Both the position numbers and the translations under genes were made by a program. A stretch of 64,000 nucleotides of DNA from positions 34,781 to 98,780 of the forward strand of contig JAFTXJ010000018.1 in the NCBI GenBank assembly GCA_017461625.1, in the 5' to 3' direction. The stretch comes from Clostridia bacterium (GTDB taxonomy: Bacteria; Bacillota; Clostridia; Oscillospirales; Acutalibacteraceae). Shown here one piece after another: positions 9,239 through 34,904 of the stretch. Below the pieces are notes generated by a model. It saw nothing but the letters and a program-made list of their open reading frames with translations. It searched no databases and was not told the DNA's origin. Position 1 is the stretch's first letter. Each line of letters opens with the position of its first letter.

Positions 9239-9913
9239 CTAACAAAAACTTTTTCCGCTTGCGGTCAGCAAGTCTTCACGCACAATATATTGTTGTTTTG
9301 AGGATATTTGTATATTCTTTTCAAGAGTTTCAATTAAAAGTGCAGGGTTAAGGTTGACAGAATTTCCCGCAGCAAGGTTAAGCGAAAGTAAAATTCGGTT
9401 ACCGTCAAGAGTAAGCTCTTTTTCAAAAATCTGCTCAATTAAGTTAACCTGCTTAAGCACTTTTCGGTGACCCTTTTTGCCCATCTTCTCAGCCATAAGC
9501 TCTTCGCCGTTCATAAGTGCATCTGCACTGTAATAAAAATTCTCCGCTTCATCGGCGTTCGCAAATTCAAGAGTAACGGCATATTTGGCACTTGCAATTT
9601 CATTGGCATTAAAAACAGGGTCTTTAACGCTTACAATCCCTACACCCTCAGGCATAACGGCTTTGAGTGCATCTTCAACCTGAGCGTTTGTCATATCACC
9701 CTCGATTCTGATATCCATATATTCACAGTCACTGCTCTGACCCAAAGAAAGAGGAAGTGCAAATGCGATATACGGATGAGGGTTAAATCCTTCGGTGTAC
9801 CACATAGGAAGCTTGGCCCTGCGAACAGCTCTTGTCATAAGGCGGTTAACATCAAGGTGAGAAATATAAATCATTCTGCCTGTTTTTGAAAATCTGATTC
9901 TAACACATCGCAT
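9239..9913 (-). CDS. TIGR03936-family radical SAM-associated protein (DUF2344)
   Basis: Start set at MRCVRIRFSKTGRMIYISHLD (ATG 9913), overlapping the stop of the upstream radical SAM gene. This is the conserved TIGR03960/TIGR03936 pairing. Confidence 0.85.
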   Translation of the reverse strand: MRCVRIRFSKTGRMIYISHLDVNRLMTRAVRRAKLPMWYTEGFNPHPYIAFALPLSLGQSSDCEYMDIRIEGDMTNAQVEDALKAVMPEGVGIVSVKDPVFNANEIASAKYAVTLEFANADEAENFYYSADALMNGEELMAEKMGKKGHRKVLKQVNLIEQIFEKELTLDGNRILLSLNLAAGNSVNLNPALLIETLEKNIQISSKQQYIVREDLLTASGKSFC

Positions 9914-11744
9914 GGCACTCACCTCCGTTGAGCTTGTTCGCTCCGCAGCCTGCACATTTTTCACGGCAGTTTTTGGTTGTTTCACTTCTGTGAGCCTTTT
10001 CATTCTCTTTCATAAGGAATTTTTTGCTCACACCGTAATCAAGATGATCCCAAGGAAGAATTTCATCAAAGCTTCTGCGACGGTTAGCATAGAAAGCAGG
10101 ATCAATTCCGCATTCTTCAAAAGCTTCCATCCACTTACCGAAATCGAACTGATTATCCCAACCGTCAAAACGGCAACCCTTTTTCCATGCAAGCTCCATA
10201 ACCTTAGAAAGTCGGCGGTCACCTCTTGCAAACACACCCTCCAAAAAGCTGGTTGGAGTCAGGTGAGTGCTGATATTTATTTTTTTAGTGGTCACGCTTT
10301 CAAGAAGATGCTTTTGCTTTTCTTGGAGCTGTTCCATTGTGTCCTGAGGCTCCCACTGGAAAGGAGTGAATGGCTTGGGAACAAAAGAAGAAGCACTGAT
10401 ATTAACGGTAACGCCCTTGCCCTTCGGCTTATCGGGGTTCTGATAAAAAGCATTTACAACTTTTTGACCAAGCTCAGCAATACCTGCAACATCATCCAAA
10501 GTTTCGGTAGGAAGACCAATCATAAAATAAAGCTTAACCCCGGTCCAGCCACCGCTGAATGCTTTTTTAACAGTTTCCATAACTTCGTCTTCAGTGACGT
10601 TTTTGTTGATAGCATCACGAAGTCGCTGTGTGCCTGCTTCAGGGGCAAAGGTAAGACCAGCACGTCTTACGGCAGTGAGTTTTTGCATAAGCTCGTCTGA
10701 AAAATTATCCACACGAAGTGACGGCAAAGCAACATTGATTTTGTCATCAATAGTCCAGCTCAACAATTTATCAAGAAGCGGCTCAATCTGAGTGTAGTCA
10801 CTTGTACTAAGGGAGCAAAGTGAAATTTCATCGTAGCCTGAGGTTTCACAAAGGCACTTGCTCTGGCTTTCAACCACATCTGCACTTTTTTCTCGGATTG
10901 GCCTGTAAATAAAACCCGCCTGACAGAAACGGCAGCCTCTGATACAGCCCCTGAAAATTTCAGCAGTTACTCTGTCGTGAACAATTTCGATTGACGGAAC
11001 TATAAACGACTTGGGATAAAAAGCTTTATCCAAATCCCTAACTACTCTTTTAACTGCTTTTTGGGGAGCAGTATATTTGGGAGTTACGCTTTTTATTGTG
11101 TTATCTTCATTATACTCCACATCATAAAGCGAAGGGACATAAAATCCGTCGATTTTTGCAACCTCACAAAGAAACTCAAACTTTGACGAGCCTTTTTTCT
11201 TATGCTCTTTGAGTAAATCAAGAAGCTCGTTTGTTATTTCTTCACCTTCACCGAGCATAACCACATCAATAAAATCGGCAATTGGCTCAGCGTTGCACAC
11301 ACAAGGACCACCTGCTACAACCAATGGTGTAAGACTCTCGCGGTCTTTTGAATAAAGCGGCACCTGTGCAAGGTCAAGCATATTCAGAACATTGGAAAAG
11401 CTCAACTCATACTGAAGTGTGAAACCGATCATGTCAAAATCCTTGATTGGGTCACCGCTTTCAAGAGCATAGAGAGGAATATTGTTTTCTCTCATCTGCT
11501 CTTCCATATCTACCCAAGGGGCAAACACACGCTCACATCAGGCATCCTCACGTTCATTAACGAGCGAATATAAAATTTTCATTCCAAGGTGAGACATTCC
11601 GATTTCGTATGTATCAGGAAAACAGAATGCATAACGCAAATCAACCTTGTTTTTGTCTTTAATAACGCTGTTAAGCTCACCGCCCACATATCTGCCCGGC
11701 TTCTGAACTTTCAGCAAAATATTTTCTACCTTCTGTGGAATCAT
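9900..11744 (-). pseudogene. TIGR03960-type B12-binding-domain radical SAM protein, interrupted by a single in-frame TGA (11538-11540)
   Basis: ORFs 11538..11744 and 9900..11528 are in the same frame. Read-through gives ...LVNEREDA*CERVFAPWVDMEE. The CxxxCxxC cluster is RGCIRGCRFCQAG. Total length is 614 codons. Confidence 0.8.
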
Positions 11745-11755
11745 AAAACTTTCCT

Positions 11756-12115
11756 TTACTGTTTAATTCTTTGTTTAACTTGTGTGTCAATATATTGGCA
11801 CACACCTTCAAAATTACGGTCAATATCAAGATTGCAAATTCGCAAAATCTTTAAGCCCAACCGTTCAAGCTCTTCACTTCGCAATTTATCTTTTAATATT
11901 TGCTCCTGTGCATAGTGACCTCCGCCGTCAAGCTCAATAACTAACTGAGCCTTTGCACAATAAAAATCAACAATATACTCACCTATTGCCTTTTGCCGTT
12001 GAAAATGAGTAGGATAATTTCGCAAAAAATCATACCATAACTTGCGTTCCCACGGAGTCATATTTTTGCGTAGGTTTTTGGCAAGAGGAATGTTGTTTTT
12101 GTTGTATTCTTTCAT
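11756..12115 (-). CDS. DUF559 (Vsr-like endonuclease fold) domain protein
   Basis: NLRKNMTPWERKLWYDFLR...FQRQKAIGEYIVDFYC...LVIELDGGGH. ATG 12115 is preceded by AGGTGG. The ORF-track first codon is a GTG inside that SD. Confidence 0.85.
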   Translation of the reverse strand: MKEYNKNNIPLAKNLRKNMTPWERKLWYDFLRNYPTHFQRQKAIGEYIVDFYCAKAQLVIELDGGGHYAQEQILKDKLRSEELERLGLKILRICNLDIDRNFEGVCQYIDTQVKQRIKQ

Positions 12116-12124
12116 AATTGCCAC

Positions 12125-12271
12125 CTGAAAAACTCAATCTAAAGTGGCTCCCCTTGTCAGGGGAGCTGTCGCAAAGCGACTGAGGGGTAGTCTGCTCGGA
12201 GTATCTCTCCCTCCGTCTTTTGCTTCGCAAAATCCACCTCCCTCATCAGAGGGAGGCAAGGAAGTCTTTTA
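12125..12271. repeat. GC-rich multi-hairpin palindromic element between the two AT-rich island genes
   Basis: Hairpins: GCTCCCC-ttgtca-GGGGAGC (12147-12166), GTCGC-aaa-GCGAC (12168-12180) and CCTCCCTC-atca-GAGGGAGG (12237-12256). A second CTCCCTC at 12207-12213 offers alternative pairing. About 53% GC in two hand-counted 60-nt lines. Confidence 0.7.
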
Positions 12272-13792
12272 TCATAGTGCAACTAAATCCGCATTAAATC
12301 TTCCGTTCTGCTTAAAGATACCTAAAGGTAATGTTTCCGAATCGTTTCCGTGATTTACTTTCCATTTTTCTGCTAAATCTTTTAATTCTTTTGCTGTAAT
12401 CAAAAGAATTATCGTATCACTAGTCAAAGCATATTTTGCACATTCTTTAGCTGAATCAGCCGTGAATTCAGGACCAATAACCATAAAAACAGAAACTGGT
12501 TTTGTTGAGTTAGTGATATACCTATCAAACTGCTTAATATGTTCAGCCAAAGATACTTGCATTTCTTTTGACTTGTTATCCCACATTATGAGTTTATCAT
12601 TGAACGAAAGTATCCCGTCAGGATGCTCTGTTCCACTCATAATCAAAGGTTTAATTTTAAATATTTTTTCAAATATATAGTTCGTAGCAGCTTCAAATTT
12701 ATGCTCGCACTCTAAATCTTTCGAAATAACACCTTGCTGATGAAGAACCTGCAAATTTCTTGAAGCCAAATCGACGAAATAATGGTAATACAGTTCTCTT
12801 TCATCTTCTTCGGAAACTTCTATTTGCTTTATTTCGTCATAATAAGATATTATTCGATTTATCAATTCAGGCTTCGTACCATAAGTGGTAAGACCTAAGG
12901 CTCCACACCATTCAGACAATGAGCCTTTATCTAAACCGTCATTCGCCGAAAATCCACCAATAAGCTGATGCGCTGTAAGATTTTTTACAACCAATTCTTT
13001 AAGCTCGGTAAGATTTGGATTGCTTGGCAATCTAACCTTACCCTTAGTCAACATATCAATAAGATATTTTTTACTCTTTACATACTTACTTTCTATCAAA
13101 GAGAGAAATGATGATTCCTTGATGTCTATGTTAAAAATATTCCTCAAACAACTTGCAACTTCCTCGGGGATTACATCATAATCAACACCGCTTGAATCTC
13201 TGACGGGAACGATAAGACCCTTAGATTGCAATAATCTTCTTACATCCGAAATATCATCTCTTGAATGAACAATGTTATTGGTTGTAGGGAACTTTCCAAT
13301 CTGAGCCTCCAAAATTTGGTGATGTTTTTCTGTTATACCCATTCTCTTGCGAATTTTATTGATAAGATTTTGTTCATCAACCGAAACATCGTCATTGTTA
13401 TCCCAAGCGGCATCAACAACATATTTATAAAAATCAATATCCTCTATTTCAGAGTCAAGAGCAAATTCATTTGCAAGGTCTATTATATCCTGCTCATAAT
13501 CTACTACTTTATATTCTGTTGCATTAAGTGTTTCAGTAAAATCATCACAATTCAAAAGAATACTCTTGATTATAATACTGAATAAAATTCTATTATTTCT
13601 ATTAGGATTAAGTTCAAAAAACTCAACTACATTCCTAATATTTTCCTCATTAGAATATTGCGGAGCAGTTTTTACTACAGCTGCTTTCAATTCGTCAAAA
13701 CTTAGTCTTTTGTAATCAATTACATATTCATTTGCTACTCTTTTTAAATCTGTAAAAGTCGAAACATTTGCAACACAATCCTTAAATTTCAT
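12272..13792 (-). CDS. Uncharacterised 506-aa protein: N-terminal helical region, SAP-like DNA-binding motif(s), C-terminal FokI-like PD-(D/E)xK nuclease module
   Basis: Residues 291-318 are LSEWCGALGLTTYGTKPELINRIISYY (SAP-like). Residues 361-407 are ECEHKFEAA...GTEHPDGILSFNDKLIMWDNK (E...PD...DxK). No NTPase motif is present. Strongly AT-rich coding sequence. Confidence 0.6.
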   Translation of the reverse strand: MKFKDCVANVSTFTDLKRVANEYVIDYKRLSFDELKAAVVKTAPQYSNEENIRNVVEFFELNPNRNNRILFSIIIKSILLNCDDFTETLNATEYKVVDYEQDIIDLANEFALDSEIEDIDFYKYVVDAAWDNNDDVSVDEQNLINKIRKRMGITEKHHQILEAQIGKFPTTNNIVHSRDDISDVRRLLQSKGLIVPVRDSSGVDYDVIPEEVASCLRNIFNIDIKESSFLSLIESKYVKSKKYLIDMLTKGKVRLPSNPNLTELKELVVKNLTAHQLIGGFSANDGLDKGSLSEWCGALGLTTYGTKPELINRIISYYDEIKQIEVSEEDERELYYHYFVDLASRNLQVLHQQGVISKDLECEHKFEAATNYIFEKIFKIKPLIMSGTEHPDGILSFNDKLIMWDNKSKEMQVSLAEHIKQFDRYITNSTKPVSVFMVIGPEFTADSAKECAKYALTSDTIILLITAKELKDLAEKWKVNHGNDSETLPLGIFKQNGRFNADLVAL

Positions 13793-13837
13793 AAAATGTC
13801 CTCATCTTTCTTTGTTTTACATACAATAACATCTTTT

Positions 13838-16228
13838 TTACTTTAAAGTAACAATACTTACACCGTCTTCGCCTTCACCGAAAGTACCGAGGCGGTGAGA
13901 TTTAACATAGGGGCTCTTTTTAAGATATTCCCTTACTGCTGTTCTCAGTGCTCCCGTGCCTTTACCGTGAATAATGGTAAATTCGTTAAGGCCCGTGCGA
14001 AGTGCACTGTCCATAAATCTGTCAAGGGTCATAAGGCATTCTTCAACGGTCATGCCTCTCAAATCAAGACGAGTGTCAGCAGAAATATTCATTCTGCTGT
14101 CCATTTTACTGCCGTGAGTTGCTTTTGGTTTCTGAATTTTAGGCTTATTTGATTTTTCAAGAAGTCGGAGGTTTGAAATCTGTGTTCTTGTTTTAATTGC
14201 ACCCATCTGTACCTCGGCAACACCTTTTTTAGTGTTAACCGAAACCACCGTAGCTTCAGCACCGATGTCTGCAAGAATTACGCTGTCACCCTGTTTGAGT
14301 TCACGGGGCAAAACATAATTTTCATCTGTATCAAATGTGCCGATAACAGGGTCTGCGGCAGCATCAATAGCACCGATTCCCCTCTTGACCGCCGCCCTTG
14401 CACGTCGAGCCATTTCTGCAGCATCCTTTTGTTTAGCCTGTTCTTTTTTGAGCCTTTCAAGCTCATCAAGGAGTGCGTATGCTTCACGCTTTGCCTGCTC
14501 GGTTATTTTAATCGCCTGAGCCTTTGCTTTTTCTATCTCTTTTTCACGAAGAGTCTGAATCTCGGCTTTCATCTGCTTGGCTTTTTCAATCTGCTGCTGT
14601 GCCTCTCGCTTTAACTGCTCGGCTTCATTTTTGCCCTGCTCCATCTGTCGACGGCTTTCTTCAAGCTTGTCAACAACATCTTCAAATCGGGCATTTTCTG
14701 TGGAAACAAGGTTTCTCGCAGTGTCAACAATTTCATCGGAAAGACCAAGTCTTTGAGAAATTGCAAAAGCGTTTGATCTGCCCGGTACACCGATCAAAAG
14801 TTTATATGTGGGTTTGAGGGTTGAAACATCAAACTCACAGCTTCCGTTGATTACTCCATCTGTCTGCAAAGCATAAGCTTTAAGCTCGGCATAGTGAGTT
14901 GTGGCGGCAATTTTTGCCCCCTGACGGCGAAGCTTTTCAAGAATAGAAACAGCCAACGCAGCACCTTCAACAGGGTCAGTGCCTGCACCAAGCTCGTCTA
15001 TGAGAACAAGACTGCCCTCACCTGCGATTTTCAAAATATCTATTATAGTTGTCATATGTGACGAAAAGGTTGAAAGGGATTGTTCAATGCTCTGCTCGTC
15101 ACCGATGTCGGCAAGCACATTTTCAAAAACGGAAATTCTGCTTCTGTCATCAACAGGGAGCATAAGTCCGCACATTGCCATTAAAGAAAGAAGCCCGATT
15201 GTTTTAATCGAAACGGTTTTACCACCGGTATTAGGTCCTGTGATAACAAGGGTATCAAAATCTTCACCTAATTTAATATCAACAGGTACAACCTTTTTAG
15301 GGTCAATCAGCGGATGCCTTGCCCTGCGAAGATCAATTATTCCTTCGTTATTGAGGGTTGGTGCAGAGGCTTTCATAGCATAAGCCAACTGAGCCTTGCC
15401 GAAAATGAGATTAAGCTCAACTGCACACTCGTAGCTTGATTTAATTGTGTCAGCAAAGGAACCTGCCTGAGCAGAAAGCTCAGCAATAATTCTTTCAATT
15501 TCATCCTGCTCCTGATTTTGAAGAAGTCGGATTTTATTATTGGCTTCAACCACTCCCATAGGTTCAACAAAAACAGTTGCACCTGATGATGAAGTGTCGT
15601 GAACCAGGCCCGGAACATCGGCTCGGTGTTCACTTTTAACAGGAACAACAAATCTGCCGTTACGCATTGTTATAATGTTATCCTGCAAATATTTTGAATA
15701 ATTTGTGTTTCGTGTAATTTTGCCCAACTGTTCTCTTACGTGAGATTCCTGAGCTCTGATTTTTCTTCTTATACTCGCAAGCTCTGGCGAAGCATTATCG
15801 GCAATTTCTTCTTCTGAAAGAATTGCATTTTTAATTGCATCTTCAAGATATCTGTTTGGTGAAAGTGAATTAAACAATGTGTCAAGGCAGGTTTCAACAC
15901 CTGAGCAGGTGCTTCTCCATTGAGTGATTGTTCTGATAACGTGAAGCACACTTGCAATGTCAAGAAGCTCTCTTAAAGAAAGAGAACTTCCGGCATCTGC
16001 TCTGTAAAGGGCATTTGTAACATTCACAAGACCACCGAATGCAGGACCGCCGAAACGTGCAAGAAGCATGTGGGCATCTTTGGTCTGATTAAGCAAAGCC
16101 TGAGCCAATTGAAGAGTTGGCTCTGGTTTCAGCTCACGGGCAAGAATACGGGCATCTTCACAAGAAACGTGAGATGCCAGCTTTTCAAGCACCTTATCAA
16201 GTTCAAGAGATAAATAATGTCTGTTCAT
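13838..16228 (-). CDS. mutS2: Endonuclease MutS2 (MutS domain plus C-terminal Smr)
   Basis: Walker A GPNTGGKT and Smr LDLRGMTVEECL...IIHGKGTGALR. Start at MNRHYLSLELDK (ATG 16228, GGAG upstream). Confidence 0.95.
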   Translation of the reverse strand: MNRHYLSLELDKVLEKLASHVSCEDARILARELKPEPTLQLAQALLNQTKDAHMLLARFGGPAFGGLVNVTNALYRADAGSSLSLRELLDIASVLHVIRTITQWRSTCSGVETCLDTLFNSLSPNRYLEDAIKNAILSEEEIADNASPELASIRRKIRAQESHVREQLGKITRNTNYSKYLQDNIITMRNGRFVVPVKSEHRADVPGLVHDTSSSGATVFVEPMGVVEANNKIRLLQNQEQDEIERIIAELSAQAGSFADTIKSSYECAVELNLIFGKAQLAYAMKASAPTLNNEGIIDLRRARHPLIDPKKVVPVDIKLGEDFDTLVITGPNTGGKTVSIKTIGLLSLMAMCGLMLPVDDRSRISVFENVLADIGDEQSIEQSLSTFSSHMTTIIDILKIAGEGSLVLIDELGAGTDPVEGAALAVSILEKLRRQGAKIAATTHYAELKAYALQTDGVINGSCEFDVSTLKPTYKLLIGVPGRSNAFAISQRLGLSDEIVDTARNLVSTENARFEDVVDKLEESRRQMEQGKNEAEQLKREAQQQIEKAKQMKAEIQTLREKEIEKAKAQAIKITEQAKREAYALLDELERLKKEQAKQKDAAEMARRARAAVKRGIGAIDAAADPVIGTFDTDENYVLPRELKQGDSVILADIGAEATVVSVNTKKGVAEVQMGAIKTRTQISNLRLLEKSNKPKIQKPKATHGSKMDSRMNISADTRLDLRGMTVEECLMTLDRFMDSALRTGLNEFTIIHGKGTGALRTAVREYLKKSPYVKSHRLGTFGEGEDGVSIVTLK

Positions 16229-16238
16229 ATTAACTCCA

Positions 16239-16976
16239 TTATGTAATGCTCTTGTAAAAATCAAGAGTTTTATATTTTCTGTTTGTCTGATTTAAAAGAT
16301 ATTTTTCGCAAACATCGGCAAGAATGGGATAGTTTTCTTCGCCAAGAGTGAAAGAAAACAATTTTTCAGGCTGAGAGTAGCAAATATATCTCATAGCTGT
16401 TACAACACTCAGCGGCAACTCCTCACAAGGCACATCTCCAACACATTCAGAGCAGTAAAGATGACCGTCATAAGTGCCGAAATACATAACTTCATCTTCA
16501 AACTTTCCGCAACCGTCGCAAGCAACCAAATCGGGCATATAACCTGCCAGCGAAAGAGTGCGAAGCTCGGCAATGGCTTTGAGCTGAGGCTCGGGACGTT
16601 TGTTTTTACCCAGCATATAAAGGCAGTTAAGTGTAAGGCGAAGAAAATCCGCCGCATCACTTTCCTGAGGGGCAAGCTCATACTGAAGCTCACAAAAATA
16701 CTGAGCCAAAGCAAGCTTACCGATGTCATTTCTTAAATCAAAAAATATCTCTTTGGTCTGAATTTCGTCAATAACATAAGCATCTTTTCCGCGGTAGATT
16801 GAGAAATCCGCATAGGAAAACATCTGACTTCCGCATTGGGTGCGGCTTTTAAGCCTTTGAGCACCTCTTACAAAAGCCCTGAGCACACCGTAATCTTTTG
16901 TAAGCACGGTAACAAGACGGTCATCGCCGTTTGTCTTGTGCTCTTTGATTATCAGCCCTTCTGTGTTCATTCGCAT
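16239..16976 (-). CDS. recO: DNA repair protein RecO
   Basis: 245 aa with an N-terminal OB-fold region and a zinc module CDGCGK...CSEC. Order era-yqzL-recO. Confidence 0.92.
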   Translation of the reverse strand: MRMNTEGLIIKEHKTNGDDRLVTVLTKDYGVLRAFVRGAQRLKSRTQCGSQMFSYADFSIYRGKDAYVIDEIQTKEIFFDLRNDIGKLALAQYFCELQYELAPQESDAADFLRLTLNCLYMLGKNKRPEPQLKAIAELRTLSLAGYMPDLVACDGCGKFEDEVMYFGTYDGHLYCSECVGDVPCEELPLSVVTAMRYICYSQPEKLFSFTLGEENYPILADVCEKYLLNQTNRKYKTLDFYKSIT

Positions 16977-33752: not shown

Positions 33753-34904
33753 ATGAGAGAAAAGCTTTCAGTGTTTTGCTTTAACTTAATCAAATTTATC
33801 ACTGCACTTTTACCATTTAAAAACAATATAATTTTTGAAAGCAACCCTATCTTCGCAGACAACGCTTTTGCTGTTTATAAAGAATTTTTAAAACGCGGAT
33901 ATAATAAAAAATATAAACTGATATGGTTAATTAACGGAAATAATTATTCCGACACCCTGCCTTACAACGTTTCTGTTGTTAAACGAGACGGTTCACTTTC
34001 AGAAAAACTTATATACTATTGGATACTCTCTCGGTCAAAGTTCATTATCGATTCTAACAATTTTGTAAAAAAAGTTCATAGAAGGCAAATTCGCATACAT
34101 CTCAAGCACGGACTACCCATAAAAGATGCATCTCAATATACCAAAACAATCGGCGAATTAGATGTGCTATGCGTTCCGTCTGATTATTGGATTAACGTAA
34201 GTGCCAAAGAGCATAATGTTGATCCGTCAGTTATCAAGCCATTGGGCTTCCCCAGAAACGACGTACTCGTTCCTCATCCGCATGAGTTTAAAACAATCAT
34301 GTGGATGCCGACCTTCCGTAAAAACTCATTGGACACGGAATCTGATATTCATTTCGATTTCAACTCCATAATGCCACTTGGTCTTCCGTTTATTTCAAAT
34401 ATTGAATCATTGCAAAAAATAAACGAACTTTTTAAAACTAATAACGCATATCTGCTTGTGCGACTTCATCCGGCACAGGACCTTTCGGGCATCTCTCTTT
34501 CAGAGATGTCGAATGTGAAAATTTGTAATGATGAATTTATAAAAAGTCATAACACCTCACTGTATAAAATTCTTACTTACACTGATGCTTTGATTTCGGA
34601 TTACTCTTCAATTTATTATGACTATCTTCTTTTAAACAAGCCCATTGCTTTGGCAACATTTGATTTTGAACATTACAAAAATCACAACGGCATCATTGTC
34701 AAAAATTATGATGAATTCAAAAAAGCTTTTCCCTCTGTTTTTGTTGAAAGCTTTGATGATTTAATTGCATTTTTCACTGATATTTTTAACGATAATCCCG
34801 ATGCGTATAAATGTGCCGAGGCAAAAGAACGATATATGAAAGATTGCGATTCACATTCAGCAGAAAAAATCGTTGATTACATAGCCAACAACTATAAATT
34901 ATAA
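33753..34904 (+). CDS. CDP-glycerol glycerophosphotransferase family protein (TagB/TagF-like)
   Basis: 383 aa with family-typical LISDYSSIYYDYLLLNKPI and HP...L region. Confidence 0.85.
   Translation: MREKLSVFCFNLIKFITALLPFKNNIIFESNPIFADNAFAVYKEFLKRGYNKKYKLIWLINGNNYSDTLPYNVSVVKRDGSLSEKLIYYWILSRSKFIIDSNNFVKKVHRRQIRIHLKHGLPIKDASQYTKTIGELDVLCVPSDYWINVSAKEHNVDPSVIKPLGFPRNDVLVPHPHEFKTIMWMPTFRKNSLDTESDIHFDFNSIMPLGLPFISNIESLQKINELFKTNNAYLLVRLHPAQDLSGISLSEMSNVKICNDEFIKSHNTSLYKILTYTDALISDYSSIYYDYLLLNKPIALATFDFEHYKNHNGIIVKNYDEFKKAFPSVFVESFDDLIAFFTDIFNDNPDAYKCAEAKERYMKDCDSHSAEKIVDYIANNYKL

Follow-up and report, generated by a model that had tools for sequence, protein, structure and literature searches.

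The 64,000-nucleotide stretch of DNA analysed here (the window; positions 34,781 to 98,780 of contig JAFTXJ010000018.1, assembly GCA_017461625.1, from a Clostridia bacterium of the family Acutalibacteraceae) carries on its minus strand a complete open reading frame (ORF) for a protein of 506 residues plus stop codon. A preliminary description, made from the letters of the sequence, had reported this ORF at the same place and had read it as a combination of SAP-like DNA-binding motifs with a module resembling the FokI cleavage domain. The gene order on this strand is mutS2, the gene for the 506-residue protein, a DUF559 gene and a radical-SAM gene. GC content is 0.28–0.35 over the ORF compared with about 0.43 in the flanks. 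An identical protein (P0001) is found on 8 contigs. The features are listed in Table 1.

Table 1. Features of the 506-residue protein, its gene and the adjoining DNA, in window coordinates.
Feature	Position	Strand	Evidence
Whole protein: N-terminal helical domain, winged-helix-like unit, two SAP motifs, FokI-type nuclease (predicted)	12272..13792	minus	ORF list; AlphaFold2 model
Ribosome-binding site GATGAGGA	13799..13806	minus	Sequence; GAGG at 13800–13803, 7 nt 5' of ATG
Residues 1–130, all-helical N-terminal domain (predicted)	13403..13792	minus	Conservation; no Pfam match, no significant PDB fold
Residues 131–222, winged-helix-like unit, three helices and a beta-hairpin (tentative)	13127..13402	minus	DSSP of model
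Residues 236–280, first SAP-like helix-loop-helix, degenerate	12953..13087	minus	Translation; model helices H241–250 and H261–271; tandem SAP in relatives
Residues 284–322, second SAP motif (LSEWCGALGLTTYGTKPELINRIISYY)	12827..12943	minus	Pfam SAP, E 2.5e-4 in the window protein
Residues 359–506, FokI-type PD-(D/E)xK cleavage domain (predicted)	12275..12718	minus	Foldseek, hhalign, Pfam
Putative catalytic residues E367 (12692–12694), D392 (12617–12619), D405 (12578–12580), K407 (12572–12574)	12572..12694	minus	Translation, conservation, alignment with FokI
115-nt GC-rich three-hairpin element	12149..12263	minus	Just past the stop codon; right boundary of the insertion; kept in the empty site
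DUF559 (Vsr-like endonuclease) gene	11756..12124	minus	Pfam DUF559, E 5e-27

The cleavage domain and its active site

By sequence comparison and structural modelling, the carboxy-terminal module is predicted to be a FokI-type PD-(D/E)xK nuclease with an intact E367/D392/D405/K407 site. An AlphaFold2 model of the full protein, built on 26 homologues (predicted local distance difference test score, pLDDT, 89.5; predicted template modelling score, pTM, 0.70), was compared with the PDB using Foldseek. The top three matches were FokI chains (2fok/1fok; E 4e-7 to 1e-5, prob 1.00). Behind these ranked Nt.BspD6I, a Type IIS nickase resembling FokI, and the small subunit of R.BspD6I, with HindIII and SdaI lower in the list. 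When an alignment of 50 sequences reaching down to about 20% identity was compared by hhalign with the FokI cleavage domain (the query being 100% identical to 1fok_A 381–576), the two aligned with E 3.4e-4 over 107 columns. This alignment pairs D392 with D450, D405 with D467 and K407 with K469 of FokI, and places the FMVIGPEF strand on FLFVSGHF. With a shallow alignment the signal was negligible (prob 0.2), the register being already right. R424 is paired with R487, a residue of the FokI dimer interface, which we take as a hint only. The Pfam model FokI_cleav_dom (PF09254) matches residues 361–429 of the window protein with E 5e-4 and 20 bits, against a gathering score of 25; it is matched by 23 of 26 aligned family members, all weakly (best E 3.1e-5).

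The translation of 12572–12697 is FEAATNYIFEKIFKIKPLIMSGTEHPDGILSFNDKLIMWDNK. ECEHKFE begins at residue 361, and P391-D392 is followed, 13 positions on, by D405-N406-K407. Further downstream are FDRYI (422–426), VSVFMVIGPEF (433–443) and ILLITAKEL (462–470), so that all the strings from which the preliminary description had drawn its parallel to FokI stand at the described places. Among 26 relatives, down to 49% identity, no change occurs at E363, E367, D392, D405 and K407. In the diverse set reaching about 20% identity, E367, D392, D405 and K407 are each found in 49 of 50 sequences. Because E363 varies in this broad set, E367 is the likelier candidate for the acidic residue of helix 1. The active-site motif thus goes beyond chance. 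Absence of a PD-(D/E)xK fold, or lack of conservation of the catalytic residues, had been named beforehand as grounds for abandoning the assignment; the fold was found, and the residues are conserved.

The sole exception among the 50 sequences is P0136 (513 residues, 28% identical, full-length), in which E367, D392, D405 and K407 are all replaced together (…NLTGRIKSDDKLYLYTAVASEKP…). It would be a catalytically dead relative, and may have a binding-only role.

The N-terminal module and the SAP motifs

According to the models, residues 1–325 form one compact, conserved and novel module, which is joined by a linker to the cleavage domain. Modelled alone, residues 1–335 fold into a compact single unit (pLDDT 90.7, pTM 0.87). 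A Foldseek search of the PDB with this model gave nothing significant (best E 0.6); the weak matches were generic winged-helix pieces (ArsR, RPC62) and the SAP protein DEK, all with low probability. A recognition domain like D1–D3 of FokI was ruled out for the N-terminus, as the model of residues 1–335 gives no FokI match. For the N-terminal ~230 residues we found no relative in Pfam or the PDB, and Pfam and fold searches of the N-terminus revealed none of the known modified-base readers (SRA, GmrSD-N, PUA-like and others). The module could confer specificity; that its binding is ‘non-specific’ was an assumption of the preliminary description.

Conserved positions in residues 1–130 include K17, R18, Y23, D26, Q45, Y46 and R68. 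In the adjoining winged-helix-like unit, DSSP assigns helices at 138–151, 155–164 and 178–190 and strands at 195–198 and 204–207. Foldseek matched this region to ArsR/RPC62-type folds only, with low probability, and the winged-helix assignment of residues 138–207 is tentative, being based only on the order helix-helix-helix-hairpin. The unit contains an invariant AAW...S-DE-NL motif. This is the stretch for which the N-terminal ~170 residues had been called vaguely TerB-like, a likeness that was not borne out: TerB appeared neither in Pfam scans of 26 family members nor among the fold matches.

The second SAP motif of the window protein reaches 21 bits with the Pfam model PF02037, for which the cut-off is 23.9. 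Two relatives exceed the cut-off, with 38.5 and 40.4 bits, and 20 of 26 members match (best E 1e-9). The motif aligns to the SAP domains of Hcc-1 and MKL1. SAP membership is therefore indicated at the level of the family and is marginal for the window protein, and the stronger of the two motifs in the preliminary description (291–318) is upheld in this sense, its start being residue 292 rather than 291. The succession of helix, extended loop and helix is present in the model for the second motif (H289–298 with H307–319) and likewise for the weaker one (241–270 in the preliminary description; helices in Table 1). Tandem SAP matches are found in the relatives P0134, P0244 and P0228. The weak motif of the window protein corresponds to an independently scoring second SAP in distant relatives. 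Some distant relatives have three or four SAP repeats.

The family, its neighbourhoods and its insertion

A word-indexed search gave more than 541 clusters matching at E <= 1e-3, the best 120 of which range from 100% down to 49% identity. An exhaustive phmmer search yielded 277 representatives at 50% clustering. The proteins are about 505 residues long, are conserved over their full length and, where named by the source, are called ‘hypothetical protein’. NCBIfam and PADLOC contain no model for the family, and in the literature we found no description of an architecture combining SAP with a FokI-type nuclease. A scan of 185,579 species-representative genomes identified 201 relatives, which is a lower bound as the scan was pattern-limited; 80 loci were kept from these, and the analyses of neighbours cover 82 loci.

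Most loci belong to gut or rumen Clostridia (Acutalibacteraceae, Oscillospiraceae). Other carriers are Christensenellaceae, Erysipelotrichaceae, Izimoplasma, Kiritimatiellae, Victivallales, Gastranaerophilaceae and a Woesearchaeota bin, and the family appears from its sequences to have been transferred across phyla. The copies from the Woesearchaeota bin (L018), Kiritimatiellae (L032), Victivallales (L071) and Gastranaerophilaceae (L057) are 47–49% identical to the window protein; they could reflect recent horizontal transfer or contamination in metagenome binning. Conservation is similar for all domains throughout the family. For this reason restriction enzymes of many specificities appear unlikely, and the uniform conservation suggests one common ligand (for example a modified base, a structure in the DNA or foreign DNA rich in AT) rather than many sequences.

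Pairs of paralogues were found in single genomes: L067 2950–4470 with L070 8001–9521 (Izimoplasma ZiA1), L040 with L077 (one metagenome-assembled genome), and P0066 with P0074 on one 767-kb contig. The reading frame of L067 is interrupted by a stop codon. In L040/L077 and P0066/P0074, identity is lowest in the SAP/linker part (about 0.61–0.72) and highest in the nuclease (0.88–0.92).

The family is nearly absent from phages and plasmids. PHROGs and BFVD contain no match, and IMG/VR contains one contig in 2.9 million. Distant haloarchaeal matches occur in one virus and one megaplasmid. These are genes for 546-residue hypothetical proteins in the accessory region of Halorubrum virus Humcor1 (L095 4455–6095) and on Natrinema versiforme plasmid pNVE500 (L096 5449–7089), the latter about 4 kb downstream of an integrase gene. 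The two proteins show 22–24% identity over residues ~165–505 and have a different N-terminus. With one haloarchaeal virus, one megaplasmid and one IMG/VR contig only, a phage or plasmid origin of the family was rejected.

Clustering of ORFs over the 82 loci revealed no conserved neighbour. The 134 immediate neighbours gave 149 Pfam families, none of which occurs more than seven times, and among these neighbours no DNA methyltransferase family is found twice or more. The proposed distribution and neighbourhood analysis thus describes a widespread family with no conserved partner, and the earlier statement that a specificity or modification partner is lacking holds for all 82 loci, both by clustering and by the Pfam families of the neighbours. 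Nor is there a conserved adjacent antitoxin or regulator, the commonest neighbours being 23S_rRNA_IVP (7/134) and helix-turn-helix (HTH)/WYL proteins (3–4/134). A minority of the loci resemble defence islands. In L089, for example, GmrSD, an EcoRI-type methylase and a Gp49/HTH toxin-antitoxin pair are encoded; other loci contain WYL regulators, MADS, PARIS AriA, PDC candidates, Schlafen/AlbA and resolvases.

The 23S rRNA intervening sequence protein (PF05635), a four-helix bundle of about 115 residues, is the family of those seven commonest neighbours. Its gene is located directly upstream in L026, L028, L030, L031, L068 and L069, and downstream in L036; in four loci it lies on the same strand, 57 nt upstream of the family gene.

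In a large subgroup of the family, about 50 nt 5' of the ATG are conserved although the neighbours differ. The conserved region consists of GAGGTGG preceded by a promoter close to consensus (TTGACA, 17 nt, TGnTAnAAT). A −35/−10 pair whose end lies about 19 nt 5' of the start codon was found in 44 of 76 copies, compared with 113 of 698 control genes. Short conserved sequences are also present 3' of the stop codon. The family gene is thus a self-contained, single-gene accessory unit without partner or methyltransferase, usually with its own strong promoter and terminator. Because a strong consensus promoter of its own is usual and no antitoxin-like gene adjoins, expression of the protein is probably constitutive and tolerated.

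Locus-specific direct repeats, from 15 nt up to an alignment of 156 columns, bracket 6 of 74 copies but none of 326 control genes, which were genes of similar size from the same loci (Fisher p = 3e-5). Shared inverted repeats or a common target at the ends of the copies were not found, and transposon-like ends were rejected on this account. The flanking repeats resemble long target duplications, which we infer them to be. Insertion accompanied by long duplication of the target, in the absence of other mobile elements, is described for restriction genes of Types I–IV and was first seen for Type IIS (PMC2853133).

For the locus in the window, contigs sought by an identical L19 protein provided two occupied sites, L082 and L084 (identical to the window), and one empty site, L083. 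In the empty site the radical-SAM gene comes directly after mutS2, and the flanks are about 90% identical. The alignment of empty and occupied sites contains two separate indels, one on each side of the 115-nt element. In the first, the gene for the 506-residue protein with its ribosome-binding site (about 1.57 kb) stands in place of about 18 nt after the mutS2 stop codon. In the second, the DUF559 gene is missing from L083 except for its last ~14 nt. Neither an inverted repeat nor a recombinase was found at this insertion locus. This alignment establishes that the gene is accessory at this locus, without a functional tie to MutS2. It also rules out a two-gene cassette with DUF559, as the separate indels flank a retained element; of the 82 loci, only 4 have DUF559 next to the family gene, where it lies just downstream, and the family members there are only about 46% identical to the window protein.

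The gene begins 45 nt after the mutS2 stop codon on the same strand. A promoter scan of the upstream region of the window copy gave nothing convincing, in contrast to the relatives with their own promoter, and this copy is probably transcribed by read-through from mutS2. The preliminary description had noted that no Walker motif, methylase or helicase lies nearby. This is correct for methylase and helicase; a Walker motif (GPNTGGKT) is, however, encoded by mutS2 (13838–16264), and the genes for Era and PhoH are also close. Since an empty site exists, MutS2, Era and PhoH are unrelated housekeeping genes.

The 115-nt element occurs once in the window and folds with a minimum free energy of −60 kcal/mol (z = −6.2); a terminator scan revealed a terminator-like hairpin at 12237–12252. 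It is 96% identical in the empty site, compared with about 90% for the flanking genes, and has no Rfam match. Its first part (the first hairpin with adjoining sequence) flanks DUF559 genes elsewhere, in direct orientation upstream and inverted downstream (L063 9757–9782 and 10158–10210; L064 9659–9682 and 10056–10109; L066 9694–9804). DUF559 may therefore form a very small unit, mobile or deletable, with inverted repeats as its boundaries. The radical-SAM gene (9900–11744) contains an in-frame TGA at 11538–11540 on the minus strand, which splits the 614-residue protein into ORFs of 68 and 542 residues. The codon is TGG (Trp) in L082 (99.98% identical) and in L083, and the TGA would be due to a nonsense mutation or to an error in sequencing.

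The role of the family and its relation to known systems

The reading that we prefer, and that we regard as evenly balanced between right and wrong, is that of a solitary, methyltransferase-free restriction-type endonuclease. The N-terminal module would bind DNA. With one active site per chain, as in FokI, two molecules would pair on the DNA to make a double-strand break. A protein that is constitutively made and tolerated would have to discriminate its substrate; host DNA would be spared as it is without the feature read by the N-terminal module, and no methyltransferase would be needed. This Type IV-like rule would be the simplest one because the protein appears to be tolerated and a methyltransferase is lacking. 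The window copy would have been inserted between mutS2 and the radical-SAM gene. Constitutive, tolerated expression suits a surveillance nuclease of restriction type no less well than a suicide effector awaiting a trigger.

A more far-reaching version we consider doubtful. In this version the family is a new class of single-gene, methyltransferase-free immune nuclease, in which the ~230-residue domain and eukaryote-like SAPs would recognise some general hallmark of foreign DNA (for instance a modification, a structure or base composition) and thereby license FokI-type dimerisation; the same cleavage would drive the spread of the gene by insertion with long target duplication, without integrase or transposase.

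Several points weigh against the restriction-type reading. Most loci lie amid ordinary metabolic genes, outside defence islands, and a search of PADLOC-DB v2 (including Lamassu) returned 0 families at E <= 1. The rule for telling self from non-self is a conjecture, as the N-terminus contains no known modified-base reader, and the role of the family is a prediction from sequence and models. The window protein falls below the curated Pfam cut-offs for both FokI_cleav_dom and SAP, and plain sequence searches against PDB chains, whether with the protein alone or with a hidden Markov model profile of 26 sequences, did not reach FokI. The genes counted in the promoter and repeat statistics are related to one another and do not represent independent events, and the insertion in the window shows no target duplication.

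An abortive-infection effector, which the preliminary description had favoured, we judge unlikely. Here the N-terminal module would hold the nuclease inactive until the sensing of a phage component releases indiscriminate DNA degradation, killing or arresting the infected cell. This would agree with a gene that stands alone, has no methyltransferase and encodes a large, conserved part outside the catalytic domain that could be a sensor, as well as with the WYL regulators, PARIS AriA and MADS genes beside some loci. FokI itself, the top structural match (2fok), keeps its cleavage domain sequestered before binding to DNA. However, the non-catalytic module is made up of apparent DNA-binding elements (two SAP motifs and a winged-helix-like unit) and has no known protein- or nucleotide-sensing domain, and the neighbourhoods have no NTPase, antitoxin or regulator in common. 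Abortive-infection and nucleotide-binding leucine-rich-repeat (NLR)-like sensors typically swap effectors, but among the 150 best representatives the N-terminal module was never seen with a different effector.

Somewhat less probable still is a purely selfish mobile nuclease, similar to a homing endonuclease or to a ‘restriction gene as parasite’, that would serve its own insertion or retention with no defence benefit to the host. This would account for a gene-sized indel with no integrase, transposase or inverted repeats, for the enrichment of long flanking direct repeats, for variable contexts and apparent cross-phylum transfer of a unit with its own promoter, and for pseudogenised and dead copies such as L067 and P0136. 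Homing enzymes, however, recur at one conserved target. Recurrent insertion of this kind, as expected for a free-standing homing endonuclease, was not found across the loci: almost every locus has different neighbours, and only close relatives have flanks in common. Phages and plasmids, where selfish nucleases thrive, are nearly devoid of the family, and strong purifying conservation over the full length, together with an active site kept in 49 of 50 sequences over deep divergence, argues for a selected activity.

We consider it very improbable that the protein is an ordinary Type IIS enzyme served by an unlinked cognate methyltransferase from another part of the genome. FokI and BspD6I, to which the catalytic domain comes closest, are both of Type IIS, and the putative DNA-binding module precedes the cleavage domain as in FokI. 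Type II genes, though, are almost always linked to their methyltransferase, and none adjoins in the 82 loci. The N-terminus is without similarity to the FokI recognition domain, and across phyla the binding module and the nuclease show about equal conservation, whereas the recognition domains of Type II enzymes diverge rapidly. A lone restriction gene entering a naive genome would, moreover, be lethal.

A housekeeping nuclease of DNA repair or recombination, working with the adjacent MutS2 and RecO, is hardly credible: the window copy is probably co-transcribed with mutS2, but a link to MutS2/RecO is effectively refuted by the close relative in which mutS2 and the radical-SAM gene are directly adjacent, relatives of 72–74% identity and below do not have MutS2 as a neighbour, and the family occurs in only 201 stretches, as a lower bound, among 185,579 genomes.

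Among the closest known systems are FokI and Nt.BspD6I/R.BspD6I. The family shares with them the predicted cleavage-domain fold and an order in which a DNA-binding region lies on the N-terminal side of a cleavage domain that has one active site, and with FokI a catalytic D...D-x-K arrangement that aligns residue for residue. It differs from FokI-type systems in having no cognate methyltransferase, and from FokI in its N-terminal 325 residues, which are unrelated to D1–D3, in its SAP motifs and in a sequence similarity that stays under the Pfam gathering threshold. Without a methyltransferase and without a FokI-type recognition domain, the family is not part of a Type IIS restriction-modification system.

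Type IV and other solitary enzymes such as MspJI, DpnI, GmrSD and Mrr are likewise single polypeptides without a methyltransferase, mobile and patchily distributed, in which a DNA-reader module is fused to a cleavage domain of the PD-(D/E)xK type. The family differs from Type IV in having no known modified-base reader, and the window protein has no match to the mREase models of PADLOC. A FokI-like cleavage domain as nuclease effector is also found in Lamassu, where systems with such an LmuA are called Lamassu-Fok. Here, in contrast, no PADLOC Lamassu model matches, no locus contains an LmuB/SMC-like partner, and the N-terminal architecture is another one. In eukaryotes, the SAP/LEM-tethered nucleases LEM-3/ANKLE1 process chromatin bridges (PMC11975286). 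In these, too, a helix-extended-loop-helix motif binding DNA or chromatin tethers a nuclease, with no homology implied; their nuclease has a GIY-YIG fold, as opposed to the predicted PD-(D/E)xK fold of the family.

Zinc-finger and TALE nucleases are built on cleavage domains of the FokI type. To our knowledge, few natural relatives of the FokI domain have been studied outside classical Type IIS enzymes, and SAP motifs are rare in bacteria. What is new here is a FokI-type nuclease with a novel SAP-containing module, presumably DNA-binding, as a stand-alone gene; the identification of the domains is solid, while the role is inferred. A large conserved family, mainly of gut and rumen Clostridia, thus couples a FokI-type domain to a different DNA-binding module that is without a solved structural relative. 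If it is a true immune nuclease, it would be a single-gene system absent from defence catalogues, possibly with a new reader of a DNA feature. If it is selfish, it would provide a clean case for restriction-type genes that move with long target duplications and without a recombinase.

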